From: Escherichia coli
GTDB taxonomy: Bacteria > Pseudomonadota > Gammaproteobacteria > Enterobacterales > Enterobacteriaceae
NCBI RefSeq assembly: GCF_045037415.1
Contig: NZ_CP173440.1
Length of the DNA: 64,000 nt
Direction: 5' to 3' (one strand)
A model generated the notes under the pieces. It saw only the letters and a program-made list of their open reading frames with translations, was not told the origin of the DNA and ran no database searches. Position 1 is the stretch's first letter; each line of letters begins with the position of its first letter. The translations under genes and the position numbers were made by a program. This document shows positions 2,000 to 53,702 of the stretch, piece after piece.

Positions 2000-2832
2000 C
2001 GGTGTTCGGCATTCTGAATCTCACCGAGGACTCCTTCTTCGATGAGAGCCGGCGGCTAGACCCCGCCGGCGCTGTCACCGCGGCGATCGAAATGCTGCGA
2101 GTCGGATCAGACGTCGTGGATGTCGGACCGGCCGCCAGCCATCCGGACGCGAGGCCTGTATCGCCGGCCGATGAGATCAGACGTATTGCGCCGCTCTTAG
2201 ACGCCCTGTCCGATCAGATGCACCGTGTTTCAATCGACAGCTTCCAACCGGAAACCCAGCGCTATGCGCTCAAGCGCGGCGTGGGCTACCTGAACGATAT
2301 CCAAGGATTTCCTGACCCTGCGCTCTATCCCGATATTGCTGAGGCGGACTGCAGGCTGGTGGTTATGCACTCAGCGCAGCGGGATGGCATCGCCACCCGC
2401 ACCGGTCACCTTCGACCCGAAGACGCGCTCGACGAGATTGTGCGGTTCTTCGAGGCGCGGGTTTCCGCCTTGCGACGGAGCGGGGTCGCTGCCGACCGGC
2501 TCATCCTCGATCCGGGGATGGGATTTTTCTTGAGCCCCGCACCGGAAACATCGCTGCACGTGCTGTCGAACCTTCAAAAGCTGAAGTCGGCGTTGGGGCT
2601 TCCGCTATTGGTCTCGGTGTCGCGGAAATCCTTCTTGGGCGCCACCGTTGGCCTTCCTGTAAAGGATCTGGGTCCAGCGAGCCTTGCGGCGGAACTTCAC
2701 GCGATCGGCAATGGCGCTGACTACGTCCGCACCCACGCGCCTGGAGATCTGCGAAGCGCAATCACCTTCTCGGAAACCCTCGCGAAATTTCGCAGTCGCG
2801 ACGCCAGAGACCGAGGGTTAGATCATGCCTAG
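1993..2832 (+). CDS. sul1: Sulfonamide-resistant dihydropteroate synthase Sul1
   Basis: 279-aa product [28 protein letters not shown]...; the ORF-track entry 1906-2832 carries an N-terminal extension. Confidence 0.97.
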
Positions 2833-48046: not shown

Positions 48047-49109
48047 GCCAGGCCAGCGGCGTATGGCGGTGTCTGTCCAGAGACGGGAGTTCTTAAGTTG
48101 GTAGACGGTGATCCATTTTTCTGACCATTCATAAAATTTCTGGCATAGCAGCTTCTACAGCAAACTTTCGGTCACCAATTAAATCCCCTGGATTTTACCC
48201 ATACCTGCTCTTCCCTGGAATGTCGTTAATATCCACGGTATCAGGTCAGAGCTGTAACGACCAGCAGCGCCAGTGGAAATAGTCCGGCCAGTACCGGCTC
48301 CTTACCCCGGATTGATGTCTACTGTATGCGATAAATTTGGGAAAAACTGGCGATGGCCATTCTTCTGATTCTGATCGCCGGCAAGCGTGTCAGGTAGCAA
48401 AAGAGCGAACGTAAGACAACATACCCTTGAGGGTCCTGACCTTCAACGTGCCCGACCCGGCCCCCGCCGCGCGGACGAAAAAAAGAGAAAAAATAAAAAA
48501 AAAGAAAAAAAGAATATGCCGAAAATGTGCACAGTCGCGACCCACGCAGAGCGTGGCGCTCCGGGGCAAAGGCTTTGCAGGACTATAAGGCATGTTGTCT
48601 TACGTTTTGAGTGTGATGGTTACGAGCCCACCAGCTTTCATGAATTGTCCCGCCGGGTGGACTGCTATAAAGTGCATACCAGCACTGCAGCCCCTGCCGG
48701 TGATGAAGAATAATTCCGTTCAGGCGAGTATTGAGCAAGACCTTTACTACGTATTAAAACCTGGTACTCCGGGATGACGATGCCTGAGGTGCTTACCACC
48801 GGGAGAAGCAATTCGTTTATGGCGCCAGCAGCTGGTACCTGGCAGAGTTAAGTTCTTATCGCAAAGGATGATAAAAATGAGCCATGGCAAATGTGAGCCG
48901 ACAAACACGAATGCCGCCGATTACAAGCTGTACGCGCGATTCGATGCTGGTGAAACGCTTGAAAGCGTTTTAGCCTCTCCTCCGACCACGAAGCACAATA
49001 AAGTAACTTCTGAAGGAAACATCAGGACTGAACACAGAATGTGGATAGCGTGGAGAAAGAAGCATCCCAGACCACTCTGATTATCAGTGACGATTAATAA
49101 GGATAAAAC

Positions 49110-49424
49110 ATGCGAACGACAAGTATCACCCTGTGTCTGGTTTTGGCGAGTTTTGGTGTATCCGCTAAAATCCTTGCAGACCCAGACCTTACTTACCAGG
49201 CAAATAAAACGTGTGCTAAACGAGATGAACTGGAACTGAAAGTCCCTTTAGAAGCCAATAATCCCTACTCTCCCACATGGGGTTTGGACAAGGGCATGGT
49301 GCAGGCCACAATTGACGCACTGAAAGAAAATCCAGACATCGCCCCGACTGACTCTGTAGCCTGCCAACAGGCTGCAATAAAACAGTATCGGGCTGGGCAA
49401 AAACACTACAGTAAGCTCAGGTAG
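49110..49424 (+). CDS. Small hypothetical secreted protein (predicted signal peptide)
   Basis: 104-aa ORF with N-terminal MRTTSITLCLVLASFGVSA followed by a polar mature region. Confidence 0.4.
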   Translation: MRTTSITLCLVLASFGVSAKILADPDLTYQANKTCAKRDELELKVPLEANNPYSPTWGLDKGMVQATIDALKENPDIAPTDSVACQQAAIKQYRAGQKHYSKLR

Positions 49425-49628
49425 CTGCCGTGATGCCCACCAGCTGAAACCTGTGTGTGGTATAAAAACCCCGTAGCGCTGGTGCAAAACAGACCAGCGC
49501 ATTCCAGTTCTCAATCCCCTTCTGTGATGTAGGCCCCTGTCGCATTCAGACCTGAATAACCGTGCAGGGAAACATGTCAGTAAGCCATCTGGATACAAAA
49601 ACTGGTGGTATAGCCACTTTAGCTTAAA

Positions 49629-49649
49629 GCTAATGTATGCGTACATTAG
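49629..49649. repeat. 21-bp palindrome gCTAATGTAtgcgTACATTAGt followed by a T-run; partner of 50172-50192
   Basis: Read directly; the site at 50172-50192 is its exact inverse (centre cgca versus tgcg). Confidence 0.75.
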
Positions 49650-49666
49650 TTTTAAGTTTATGTTAT

Positions 49667-50149
49667 TTACCCTTCTCCCTTCCTGGATGCCTTAACCTGG
49701 GTCTGATAGTTGCGCTTTACCCGCTCAATTTCCGCCAGAGTTGCCGCCCAGTGCAGCCCTGCGGCGTGACGATATCTGGTTGCCATTTTTTCAACGGCCT
49801 CCGGAGTGCTGTCATCGCTGCGGTGCTGCCGTCCCTTCACCCCGAAAATTTCCACTATAAGCCACTGGCTACCGGTTCTGCCGAACAAGGCCTGACACAG
49901 CCGCCTCACGGCAAGCGGGGTCAGATCCGGGTCGGGATCATACGCGATGGTGGCAAAAATAAAACGCAGCATCTCAGAGGTTTTGTAGCGTTTTACCGCT
50001 GCCGCCAGCCGGGCAGCTCTTTGCGGCGCTTCCCAGCGGTCGTCGCTGTAACCTGCCACTTCAGAGAGATAGTCCTTCTCGAGTTGTTTAGCCGTGTAGC
50101 AACGTCCCCCCAAAAACATCCGCATAGCTTCTTTCGTTTCAGCTCTCAC
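49667..50149 (-). CDS. Hypothetical protein bracketed by the two palindromes
   Basis: 160-aa ORF MRAETKEAMRMFLGGRCYTAKQLEKDYLSEVAGYSDDRWEAPQRAARLAAAVKRYK...; no family recognised. Confidence 0.45.
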   Translation of the reverse strand: MRAETKEAMRMFLGGRCYTAKQLEKDYLSEVAGYSDDRWEAPQRAARLAAAVKRYKTSEMLRFIFATIAYDPDPDLTPLAVRRLCQALFGRTGSQWLIVEIFGVKGRQHRSDDSTPEAVEKMATRYRHAAGLHWAATLAEIERVKRNYQTQVKASRKGEG

Positions 50150-50171
50150 GAATCTTGTCCTCAGCCAAAGC

Positions 50172-50192
50172 TAATGTACGCATACATTAGCA
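50172..50192. repeat. 21-bp palindrome gCTAATGTAcgcaTACATTAGc, 23 bp upstream of the 49667-50149 start codon
   Basis: Read directly. Confidence 0.75.
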
Positions 50193-51095
50193 TTAAGTAT
50201 CCGGTTCAACAAAAATCAGGAAACCGATCTGATTTAGTGCATGTGGCTGTCTCTTTTGGATTATCGCTTTTGCGTTATGGTATACAGGTTACCCCTCCCC
50301 CTCTTTTCCCGCTGGTCTACTGTAGTCGACACAAAAGACAGGAACTGCGGTATGTCCTGATAATATTGTTTGAGTTTTAATCACGAAGCAGAGGGTATCG
50401 CATACAGTAGACACAACGCAGCCAGAATAACGCTCGATGTAAAATTTAGATCGTTGTCGCCTGCAGTAGACATTCCTGGTATCGACTCTGGTGCATCCAA
50501 TACTGACCCGTTCCCGGATCATGGCAGAGCATCCAGTAGACACGGTATGGAAGGACGTCAGTCCTCACCTTTCCGTCTGTTTTGACTGTGTCGGAGACGA
50601 CGGTTGCGGTTATTGTTGATGCCTTTGGCCGTCAGGTGAATACCTGTCAGTCAGGTAACTCTGTCGTTACATTTGATGCCCGAAAATCATAATTACCACA
50701 TATTAATCCGGGCATTCCGGAAAATTGTACCTGCCTGAAGAGTATCAAACGATACCTGTCTCCCCTCCTCTGAATTATCTGCTCAGTCGAGAACCTTGAC
50801 GATCGGGTGATTCAGTTTCGGCAAATGGCAGCATGATAATGTCAGCCAACAGCGTGCTGGTGAATTTATTGTCGGGCCAGACGAATTCTGTTTGTCACTG
50901 CATACTGCATGCCGGGCAGAGGAGTGAACAACGATCGAACTGAAACAGTTGCAGCGTCGTATGGAGAAAGAATGGGTTGGTTTCAGGCGGTGCTTCGGTC
51001 GGTTTCAAACAGTGTCTGACCGACTTCTGGTAAGTTTCTCCCTTGCTGTCTGGTGATTCTGTCTTGCCCGGATTGTTGACTATTGATGATGGTGT

Positions 51096-51214: not shown

Positions 51215-51346
51215 TGTCAACGCTGGCGGGTATTCTATCATTGCTGGCGGGTGAACCATCATCGCCAGAGGGTATACCATCAACGCTAACGGGGCAATTA
51301 TCATCGCCAGAGGGTAGATTTTATCAACGCCAGCGGGTAATCTGGT
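51215..51346. repeat. Origin iterons (about six ~22-bp repeats with core CAACGCTGGCGGGTA) immediately upstream of repA
   Basis: tcaacgctggcgggtattcta / tcattgctggcgggtgaacca / tcatcgccagagggtataccat / ... / tcaacgccagcgggtaatctgg. Confidence 0.65.
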
Positions 51347-51375: not shown

Positions 51376-52260
51376 ATGGCCAATGATAACAATCAGTTAG
51401 CGCTAATTATCACTGAGCAAGATAAAAGTTCTGGTGAAGTTATACATTTGGTTCCTAACTCAAAACAGAGTATTCAACCTAAATCGCTACTGCGATTGGG
51501 GGTCTTTGTTCCGACAGTCAAGGATGGCAGCGACCCTATGGCACGAGGTCATGTCATCGATGCAACGACTGAGTTGTGTCGTCTTTCTTCTATCGCTGGA
51601 GAGGGGTACGAAAAGATTAGTATTTTTGGGCCCAGGCTTGATATGGATACGGATTTCAAAGTCTGGCTAGGGATCGTGGACACACTCGCCAACACGTTTC
51701 TTGAGCCTGATGGGACTGTTAGGGTCAATTTTATTGATTTTGCTTTCAGTTGTGGGCTTGCTACAAAACGAGTTGATTCAAGGTTAAGGAAACGTTTTAG
51801 CGACTCACTGACACGGATCCAGCACACCCATTTCCAGTTCATCAAAAACTCAACAGTAGAAGGGAAAAAAGTAAAGATCGACATGAGCCTGGTGTCTACT
51901 TCTTACTATGATGAGGGAACCGATGAGGTCATTATCAGGCCAAATCCGGATTTGAATACTCTGTATCGTGTCGACGGGAAGACCCGACTTTACTTAAAAA
52001 TATTGAAGACCCTGTCTCGAAAAGAATCAGCCCAGGCACTGTATCTTTATCTAGTTGAATTACCTGACCATTTTTATCGCATTGGATTCGACCGCTTAAG
52101 AGAACGGTTGCAGCTGACTTCACACAAAGGTGCTCAGAATGCGACGATAAAAAAAGCGTTAGAGCAACTGGATGAAGCTGGTTTTTTAAAATACACGATA
52201 GAAAAAAATCGTGGGGATTATGTACTGGTCATTCTTAGTCGAAACAAAAAAGTTACCTGA
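51376..52260 (+). CDS. repA: Iteron-binding replication initiator RepA (P1 RepA / RepFIB family)
   Basis: 294-aa product with LLRLGVFVPT, GPRLDMDTDFKVWLG, RKESAQALYLY and KKALEQLDEAGFL blocks shared with P1/RepFIB RepA. Confidence 0.8.
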   Translation: MANDNNQLALIITEQDKSSGEVIHLVPNSKQSIQPKSLLRLGVFVPTVKDGSDPMARGHVIDATTELCRLSSIAGEGYEKISIFGPRLDMDTDFKVWLGIVDTLANTFLEPDGTVRVNFIDFAFSCGLATKRVDSRLRKRFSDSLTRIQHTHFQFIKNSTVEGKKVKIDMSLVSTSYYDEGTDEVIIRPNPDLNTLYRVDGKTRLYLKILKTLSRKESAQALYLYLVELPDHFYRIGFDRLRERLQLTSHKGAQNATIKKALEQLDEAGFLKYTIEKNRGDYVLVILSRNKKVT

Positions 52261-52399: not shown

Positions 52400-53520
52400 G
52401 TTTACCCGCCAGCGTTGAGGATGACCACCAGCAGCGACCACGCTTACCCGTCAGCGTTGAGGATGGTCACTGGTATCGCCCCTGTTTACCCGCCAGCGTT
52501 GACGGTGACCACCGACAGCGGCCACGCTTACCCGCCAGCGTTGAGGATGACTACCGGCAGCGGTCCCGTTTACCCGCCAGCGTTGAGGATGACTACCGGC
52601 AGCGGTCCCGTTTACCCGCCAGCGTTGAGGATAGCCACCGTCAGCGGCCACGTTTACCCGCCAGCGTTGAGGATAGCCACCGTCAGCGGCCCCGTTTGCC
52701 CGCCAGCGTTGAGGATGAGCACCGGCAGCGGCCACGTTTACCCGCCAGCGTTGAGGATAGCCACCGTCAGCGGCCACGCTTACCCGCCAGCGTTGAGGAT
52801 AGCTACCGTCAGCGGCCACGCTTACCCGCCAGCGTTGAGGATAGCCACCGTCAGCGGCCACGTTTACCCGCCAGCGTTGAGGATAGCCACCTTCAGCGGC
52901 CACGTTTACCCGCCAGCGTTGAGGATGAGCACCGTCAGCAGCCCCGCTTACCCGCCAGCGTTGAGGATAGCCACCGTCAGCGGCCCCGTTTGCCCGCCAG
53001 CGTTGAGGATGAGCACCTGCAGCGGCCCCGCTTACCCGCCAGCGTTGAGGATGAGCACCGTCAGCAGCCCCGCTTACCCGCCAACGTTGAGGATAAGCAC
53101 CGTCAGCGCCCCCGTTTGCCCGCCAGCGTTGAGGATGAGCACCGGTAGCGGATCCGTTCACCCGCCAGCGTTGAGGATAAGCACCGTCAGCGGTCACGTT
53201 TACCCGCCAGCGTTGAGGATAAGCACCGTCAGCGGTCACGTTTACCCGCCAGCGTTGAGGATGAGCGCCGTCAGTGGATCCGTTTACCCGCCAGCGTTGA
53301 GGATAAGCACCGTCAGCGGTCACGTTTAACCGCCAGCGTTGAGGATGAGCGCCGTCAGTGGATCCGTTTACCCGCCAGCGTTGAGGATAAGCACCGTCAG
53401 CGGTCACGTTTAACCGCCAGCGTTGAGGATGAGCACCGGCAGCGGCCCTGTTTGCCCGCCAGCGTTGAGGATGAGCACCGGTAGCGGATCCGTTTACCCG
53501 CCAGCGTTGAGAATGATTCC
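52400..53520. repeat. Tandem array of ~26 imperfect 42-bp repeats (TTACCCGCCAGCGTTGAGGAT + variable 21 bp); core is the inverse of the origin iteron
   Basis: Periodicity and unit read directly; CCCGCCAGCGTTGA is the reverse complement of the upstream iteron core TCAACGCTGGCGGG. Confidence 0.85.
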
Positions 53521-53702
53521 CCTCCACCGACCCCGGTTACACGCCAGCTTTGACACTACCAGCGACTACAGTCGACATTAAAATCGCCGTGACCTGCTGC
53601 AGCGCGATATACGCCCGGCTGGCATCAAAAGAATTTTAACCAAACAGCACACATCCAGCGGTACAGGAGGCCAGGTTTAACCCGGGGCAGAAACAGATTG
53701 AT

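Follow-up and report, generated by a model that had tools for sequence, protein, structure and literature searches.

In the autoregulated-repressor model, known from lac O1/O2 and gal OE/OI, a primary operator lies on the promoter and an auxiliary operator is located downstream. Among the global regulators and centromere-binding proteins of plasmids that have scattered palindromic sites are KorA/KorB of IncP with OA/OB, as well as par2 of pB171, whose operon is flanked by parC1 and parC2. The REPtron consists of a RAYT (REP-associated tyrosine transposase) gene flanked by inverted repetitive extragenic palindromic (REP) palindromes, with REPs also dispersed at the 3' ends of genes. Meanwhile, the dif modules of Acinetobacter lie between inversely oriented pdif sites, each being a 28-bp asymmetric site with an 11-bp XerC arm, a 6-bp spacer and an 11-bp XerD arm (…ATAA-N6-TTATGTTAA…) (PMC13141974). 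The present work concerns a stretch of 64,000 nucleotides from the Escherichia coli contig NZ_CP173440.1 (the window), in which a minus-strand gene of the yadA family, encoding 160 amino acids (aa), is bracketed by two copies of a long palindrome, hereafter the dyad. This palindrome pair is a strongly conserved and previously undescribed pair of cis-elements defining a portable plasmid module, and its upstream copy very probably covers the promoter of the bracketed gene.

The initial annotation had noticed palindromes flanking the 160-aa open reading frame (ORF), and both are present, being the sole matches in the window even at three mismatches; 0.12 matches are expected by shuffling (100 shuffles), and two or more were found in no shuffle. 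Its coordinates were correct for the copy at 49629-49649, while those given for the other copy, 50172-50192, were off by 1-2 nt (Table 1). As the ORF is on the minus strand, the copy at 50171-50190 is located 5' of the gene and the copy at 49630-49649 is located 3'; the upstream core read on the gene strand is CTAATGTA-TGCG-TACATTAG. The upstream core is separated from the GTG (50149) by 21 nt, and the stop codon from the downstream core by 17 nt. The two sites had also been described as mutually inverted, which is true of the centres in the window, as TGCG and CGCA are reverse complements, yet differing at just two of four positions. Since each site is itself palindromic, the two copies are as much direct as inverted repeats (28/32 and 29/31 matching positions, respectively). 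In relatives the inverse relation is not kept: among 17 independent pairs, six have inverted centres, four have direct ones and seven have at least one symmetric centre, and therefore the relation seen in the window is one of several interchangeable states and not a design feature. The region is common to more than 1100 Klebsiella plasmids, with the window being here 100% identical to the Klebsiella pneumoniae IncFIB/IncHI1B plasmid pR48_1.

Across the family, the dyad has the consensus TAATGC-TAATGT-A-YGCR-T-ACATTA-GCATTA, of about 32 bp, which corresponds to TTAATGCTAATGTA-YGCR-TACATTAGCATTAA and is built from four TAATGY hexamers, two direct and then two mirrored, round a YGCR centre. The 96 unique sites hardly vary at positions 3-11 and 13-16, counted from the centre, so that the conservation over 32 bp is specific to sequence and goes beyond mere pairing; the core positions stay near-invariant while the coding sequence diverges to 47% identity. 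The upstream dyad is located 17-21 nt before the start codon and the downstream dyad 14-43 nt after the stop, and the start-to-start spacing of paired dyads is 540-546 bp in most modules, with outliers of 514 and 555. In the Salmonella-virulence-plasmid-type clade (L006, L012, L023, L045, L051 and L152), the upstream dyad stably carries TACGTTAG as its gene-proximal arm and CTAATGTA as its distal arm; as this change in one arm is held across the clade, perfect complementarity of the core arms is not strictly enforced. Regarding folding, single-stranded dyad sites fold far better than shuffled ones (z -4 to -9), the downstream copy of the window forming a 16-bp stem (-10.3 kcal/mol, z -4.8) and the upstream copy a 9-bp stem (z -4.0).

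The centre is TGCG, or equivalently CGCA, in 70 of the 96 unique sites, Y and R being mostly non-complementary. This asymmetry (window 49638-49641 and 50179-50182), present in about 73% of unique sites, is above what independent choice of Y and R would give; symmetric centres would make ATGCAT or ACGCGT hexamers, and the cause may be that 6-bp palindromic restriction sites are avoided. The palindrome also holds an ATG on both strands (ATGCGTACATTAG... = M-R-T-L...), and long spurious ORFs consequently run antisense through the real gene (49637-50380 on the plus strand, 49248-49646 on the minus strand); the same artefact was seen at the dyads of other loci ('MHTLAL', 'MYAYIS').

For the upstream copy, 19 non-redundant contexts were aligned on the palindrome, and the sole conserved feature outside it was a TTG located 22-23 nt before the core. 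Of the 19 independent contexts, 17 have this TTG at a distance of 16-18 nt from the left-arm TAATGT that follows it. The controls gave 0/22 (downstream copies, gene strand), 1/19 and 1/22 (opposite strands); by this spacing, the downstream dyad has no promoter. TAATGT retains the three most critical positions of the sigma-70 -10 element (T1, A2 and T6), and the predicted -10 rests on positional conservation together with the established sigma-70 consensus. A simple consensus promoter scanner did not report the window promoter, because its -35 and -10 each score just 3/6, and it is the comparison across contexts that speaks for this promoter. From the predicted start, the leader would be 28 nt, with the dyad centre at about -4, and a purine-rich box is present in homologues at the same place as the Shine-Dalgarno of the window. 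It is thereby very likely, from geometry, that the upstream copy overlaps the -10 and the start of a sigma-70 promoter of the gene, which is the classic position of an operator: two marks of an operator are found, dyad symmetry with sequence-specific conservation and a site lying over the core promoter (-35 to +1).

Table 1. Features of the yadA module in the window, followed by stand-alone dyads at other loci; promoter elements and the operator are predictions
Feature	Position	Strand	Remarks
Coding sequence, 160-aa 'YadA'/'cytoplasmic protein' family, WP_004210306.1	49667..50149	minus	GTG start
Shine-Dalgarno GAGGA	50158..50162	minus	8 nt before GTG
Downstream (3') dyad copy	49622..49657		core CTAATGTA-TGCG-TACATTAG at 49630-49649 (with 5' G: 49629-49649)
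16-bp extended arms of downstream copy			GCTTAAAGCTAATGTA / TACATTAGTTTTAAGT; no -35 element attached
Upstream (5') dyad copy, putative operator	50163..50198		core 50171-50190, plus strand CTAATGTA-CGCA-TACATTAG
Perfect 22-nt palindrome GCTAATGTACGCATACATTAGC	50170-50191		within upstream copy
Predicted -10 TAATGT	50184..50189	minus	TGC before it (extended -10 TGn); inside left arm of upstream dyad
Predicted -35 TTGTTG	50207..50212	minus	just outside dyad; 17-nt spacer to -10
Predicted transcription start A	50177	minus	7 nt after -10, in right arm of dyad; from promoter geometry
9-mer copies	48316-48324	plus	
	50315-50323	plus	
	50405-50413	minus	
	50464-50472	minus	
	50534-50542	minus	
Perfect stand-alone dyad without yadA	L010 2001-2038		IncX4 pE110019_33
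Perfect stand-alone dyads without yadA	L035/L036/L037 ~2520-2560		IncFII(K)
Perfect stand-alone dyad without yadA	L029 7091-7126		Photorhabdus

The protein was searched by tblastn against PLSDB (72,556 plasmids) and was found in 3266 of them (about 4.5%), with an identity of 47-100%. The dyad brackets the gene in homologues of 47-99% identity on IncF, IncI, IncHI1B, IncHI2-size and pSLT-type plasmids, and about 45 more paired modules turned up when metagenomes and a single genome from each species were scanned. When six loci of 47-82% protein identity were fetched for comparison of their contexts, the same palindrome was present on both sides of the gene despite unrelated neighbours, similarity between loci vanished just outside the palindromes, and no neighbour gene was conserved. 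The contexts comprise IncFII beside repA, yacAB and an exonuclease; IncI behind a Tn3-family transposon; an IncHI1B plasmid; leading regions beside hok and psiAB; and a Salmonella Dublin plasmid beside an annotated DNA-binding protein gene. As the neighbours often are replication, toxin-antitoxin and leading-region genes, this suggests a maintenance or regulatory role of the module. Concerning E. coli, the dyad is carried by a fifth of the complete genomes, with 3790 plasmid and 39 chromosomal places in 5426 of them (99% plasmid-borne), and its near-absence from the chromosomes means that it does not serve a host regulon as operator. The dyad has yadA as its one consistent neighbour, and no other gene recurs.

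The site follows the family in its divergence. Very distant family members were reached at a profile E of 1e-20 to 1e-11. L030 has near-identical sites on both flanks, and in L032 the ATG is preceded at 17 nt by TAATGGATA/TATCCATTA, with CTAATGTATA/TATCCATTAG downstream. In L162 the downstream side has three copies, centred on CATA or TATA; L160 carries AGCTAAAACATAT/ATATGTTTTAGCT once upstream and twice downstream, and L159 is flanked on either side by a palindrome of another kind, TTGCTCAGRGATAT/ATCTYC..AGCAA. If protein and DNA site form a cognate pair, the two are expected to diverge together, as they do here, and this gives indirect support to such a pairing. A decayed yadA pseudogene without palindromes was also seen (L095). 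Many metagenome matches to the 16-base core are due to chance or unrelated repeats. The pattern also matches the repeat TCGGAAAGTACTAATGTAAAAGTACATTAGATTCAACACT in termite-gut contigs (L131 7468-8228; L038, L039, L069, L073, L090 and L103), which were rejected as modules, since they consist of a tandem unit of ~541 bp with insect-like ORF fragments and no yadA homologue, their equal spacing being coincidental.

Family members are called "YadA" or "cytoplasmic protein" in some sources and are otherwise hypothetical. Full-text literature searches for the half-site strings and the protein accessions returned nothing relevant, and the passages found on yadA with yacA/yacB or R100/IncFII are plasmid-annotation mentions alone, one of them a figure legend. 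The 160-aa protein has no match in Pfam, NCBIfam, PHROG, PADLOC or PDB sequences. Its AlphaFold2 (AF2) model is all-alpha, with six helices (predicted local distance difference test, pLDDT, 89), and no known fold relative was found by structure comparison. In the family alignment, the invariant residues are mostly Arg and Lys (R44, R47, K53, K56, R83, R91, R107, R110 and K145), and so many of them on long helices would count towards DNA binding.

Taken together, the module would be a self-contained and portable plasmid unit of ~600 bp: a -35 TTG stands 17 nt before the -10, which lies within a dyad, and then come a leader of 28 nt carrying the Shine-Dalgarno, the yadA-family gene and a second dyad. 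A protein on the upstream copy would exclude RNA polymerase from the -10 and the start. Most likely it would be the bracketed gene's own product that binds, in dimeric or tetrameric form, and the module would then be negatively autoregulated. The downstream copy would most likely be a second binding site, where looping could reinforce repression or which could insulate the module from the surrounding plasmid transcription. An autoregulatory operator pair was one of three readings offered by the initial annotation and is the best supported of them, strengthened here by the promoter overlap and by a palindrome that follows the family, with binding by the 160-aa protein being presumed. The chances that the gene's own product binds the dyads and regulates itself are, in our judgement, evenly balanced.

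Several observations weigh against this autoregulation. No recognisable DNA-binding domain or fold was found in the 160-aa protein by domain libraries and fold comparison, an AF2 model of its tandem fusion gave no confident dimer (predicted template modelling score, pTM, 0.47), and the net charge ranges from +8 to -1 across the family; owing to these three points, DNA binding by the protein is something we infer. In addition, positions 17-18 of the dyad vary in sequence, yet are complementary about twice as often as by chance, and each end of one module can have its own compensated changes (TATCAATG..CATTGATA and TATTGATG..CATCAATA). Pairing kept at variable positions fits a hairpin or cruciform, or template-switch correction, better than recognition by a dimer. 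Moreover, stand-alone dyads lacking the -35 occur in at least eight contexts, also on plasmids without the gene (IncX4 and IncFII(K)), and pure autoregulation leaves them unexplained, the dyad being in 4216 PLSDB records and the gene in 3266.

The stand-alone copies lead to the idea that the palindromes are recombination or attachment sites delimiting mobile cassettes, or else hotspots of recombination. Units of one or more genes plus a palindrome would then be gained and lost at palindromes, as with integron cassettes, Acinetobacter dif modules or REP/RAYT systems. A stand-alone copy would represent an empty or a dispersed site, and the yadA product or another enzyme would act on extruded hairpins. 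We regard this as unlikely, although several facts speak for it. Nine distinct stand-alone contexts were found, usually 15-260 bp past the stop of another gene, such as toxin-antitoxin pairs, an SOS-response-associated peptidase and a FinO-like gene. Homology between plasmids repeatedly ends at or within ~12 nt of the dyad, and in L126 the left-hand context switches ~10 nt outside it. The arm complementarity at variable positions and the stable single-strand hairpins would also suit such sites. The clearest case is a precise presence/absence polymorphism, in which L068 (1485-1521) equals L089 (5844-5881 and 6400-6437) minus yadA and one dyad, with flanks 96-97% identical; the junction is inside the dyad, giving one hybrid dyad, and the flank bearing the -35 is retained. 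The polymorphism is a natural loss or gain of the gene, and the stand-alone dyad of L068 is taken as the scar of a precise deletion. However, as the two copies are also direct repeats, of 32-42 bp and ~550 bp apart, recombination of one with the other takes the gene out precisely, with a single copy left behind, so that ordinary repeat-mediated deletion suffices for the one precise indel.

In IncX4, a relE-type toxin-antitoxin pair and the dyad make up an indel of 1.18 kb when compared to the common (mcr-1-type) IncX4 backbone. The dyad is 12 nt from the right end of this indel, which counts for cassettes, but no dyad is present at the left end. The indel between L009 and L036 is ~30 bp from the stand-alone dyad and not in it, and so offers no evidence of crossover at the site; a search for empty sites in the Klebsiella lineage gave homology breakpoints at query 341, 406, 1163 and 1412, none of them at the palindromes. 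The -35, located outside the dyad, accompanies the gene in 17 of the 19 contexts, which would be unexpected if crossover within dyads had spread the gene, and most stand-alone sites are without it. Besides, there is no conserved site polarity and there are no Xer-type arms, and the protein has no HUH, serine- or tyrosine-recombinase domain (Pfam and NCBIfam) or fold. If the palindromes were recombination sites after all, part of the mosaic shuffling seen in enterobacterial plasmid backbones would be accounted for.

It is rather improbable, in our estimation, that the dyad works independently of yadA, either as a site for another plasmid or host protein or as a structural element, such as a hairpin at an RNA 5' or 3' end, a weak bidirectional terminator or a portable extended -10 promoter; yadA would then simply be its commonest neighbour. 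Stand-alone copies on yadA-less plasmids, commonly just past other stop codons, are in its favour, as are a terminator-like score for the plus strand of the window's downstream copy and the extended -10 motif TGC-TAATGT, which is present on both strands of every copy, whereas conservation of sequence beyond pairing over 32 bp is against it. The dyad has no Rfam match, is nearly absent from E. coli chromosomes and diverges with the protein in distant homologues, while its stand-alone copies share no other recurring gene. As the predicted start is inside the upstream dyad, only half of that dyad would be transcribed, which also disfavours an RNA element. Resemblance to Xer, Ter, Fur, LexA and CRP sites was ruled out by spacing, sequence and the near-absence from E. 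coli chromosomes.

Termination is the structural role that had been proposed before, as a terminator plus operator, and a T-run on the plus strand had been pointed out. This T-run, after 49650, is present, though peculiar to this plasmid variant and not found in close relatives. The lone terminator-like score is also peculiar to the variant and is given by the plus strand of the window's downstream copy, opposite to the gene. In every lineage, the gene strand lacks a T-run behind the downstream copy, and no U-tract is conserved in the family. An intrinsic terminator was rejected because the downstream stem is A+T-rich, the gene-strand T-run is absent, and L030 has a separate G+C-rich hairpin with a T-run between the stop and the downstream site; L032 has a separate A+T-rich hairpin between the stop codon and the downstream palindrome. 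From these features it follows that termination is not the conserved role, and the separate hairpins argue that the site acts as DNA and not in the mRNA.

Quite improbable, in turn, is the proposal that the YadA family is an unrecognised all-helical class of proteins that acts on extruded hairpins of its own palindrome and so maintains, copies or recombines it, as a plasmid system similar to REP/RAYT or dif modules. If this were true, cargo ending in the palindrome (yadA, toxin-antitoxin pairs and others) would be shuffled between enterobacterial plasmids.

The weakest alternative, and one that can practically be dismissed, is that the 540-bp segment is an invertible switch, as the initial annotation had also suggested, flipped by a site-specific recombinase acting on mutually inverted sites: the reverse-complementary centres of the window and a tyrosine recombinase gene about 5 kb away favour it, but that recombinase is absent from most other module contexts, only six of the 17 independent pairs have inverted centres, the protein has no recombinase domain or fold, and in L020/L024 each site keeps distinct self-complementary outer arms, which inversion would have scrambled. 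When both orientations were looked for across plasmids, as had been advised, at least 80% of the query was collinear with the window on one strand in 1124 of 1191 related plasmids, and so were all 60 rows sampled evenly down the ranking (59 in a single piece and one in two pieces across an IS5 insertion). An inverted segment was not seen among more than 1100 related plasmids, and hence neither both orientations, nor consistently inverted asymmetric cores, nor a recombinase in the conserved module were found.

Around the yadA module and in the 1.2-kb gap before rep, the 9-mer TGTCTACTG (GTCTACTG at 50315) occurs four to five times, compared to 0.2 in shuffles, with its three minus-strand copies 59-70 bp apart (Table 1). 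These 9-mers may belong to the neighbouring replicon, as repeats of its origin or its regulation. In one copy (CTACTGTATGCG) there is a likeness to half of the palindrome; nevertheless, the palindrome was rejected as an iteron of rep, because the rep iterons are a different 21-bp unit and the palindrome is found with unrelated replicons. A gene for a RepB-family initiator lies at 51376-52260, preceded by about five iteron-like repeats of 21 bp (51222-51345) and followed by a 42-bp unit repeated 26.6 times with 87% matches (52400-53516). Long ORFs cross this array on both strands (plus, 52415-53329; minus, 52451-53527) and probably are artefacts of the repeat.

The carriers of the module comprise Klebsiella virulence and resistance plasmids, R100-type IncF, IncI and Salmonella virulence plasmids. 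The family thus gains a defined cis-element, a predicted promoter and start, and the hypothesis of an autoregulated binder with a new fold and four-hexamer sites of ~32 bp. Should the protein indeed bind, its DNA-binding fold would be new, and the protein itself would probably serve plasmid maintenance or regulation. For annotation, the dyad marks the boundaries of the module and its deletion scars.

Compared to the systems described above, the resemblance to the dif modules of Acinetobacter is behavioural alone: in both cases small discrete modules occur in many plasmid contexts and can be lost precisely by crossover within the sites. Toxin-antitoxin pairs are often among them, and short conserved sites form the bounds. 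Unlike pdif, the dyad has a 4-bp centre, no ATAA-N6-TTAT core or Xer arms and no conserved polarity, and it belongs to Enterobacterales. As in a REPtron, the gene is located between two hairpin palindromes, stand-alone copies are scattered downstream of genes, and the arm pairing is kept. On the other hand, the protein is all-helical, with no HUH/Y1 motif, no PF01797-like match and no conserved His-hydrophobic-His, and the dyads are on plasmids instead of chromosomes, in 1-4 copies per replicon and not hundreds, the upstream copy being in a promoter.

The plasmid-specific palindromes, some on promoters and some far from them, with extra copies elsewhere, are reminiscent of KorA/KorB or centromere-type systems, where the sites also cluster round the gene for the binder, here a presumed one. 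In contrast to KorA/KorB and par, the module is a single small gene without a ParA/ParB-type partner and without a helix-turn-helix (HTH) or CTPase domain. A ParB/parS or KorB/OB system was rejected, as there is no ParB-fold HTH domain and no conserved neighbour gene. Regarding the sites themselves, the GCTAA...TTAGC half-sites of the module are in the opposite order to TTTAGC-S-GCTAAA.

The closest likeness is to the lac and gal operators, where the dyad similarly lies over the -10 and the start, with an identical second site a few hundred bp downstream, so that the logic of looping or roadblock would apply. There are differences, as the protein of the module has no recognisable DNA-binding fold and its binding is presumed, the site is 32 bp with four hexamers, the second site is beyond the stop, the pair brackets the gene and the unit is portable. 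By analogy, the module would work most like an autoregulated repressor gene with an operator on its promoter and an auxiliary operator downstream.

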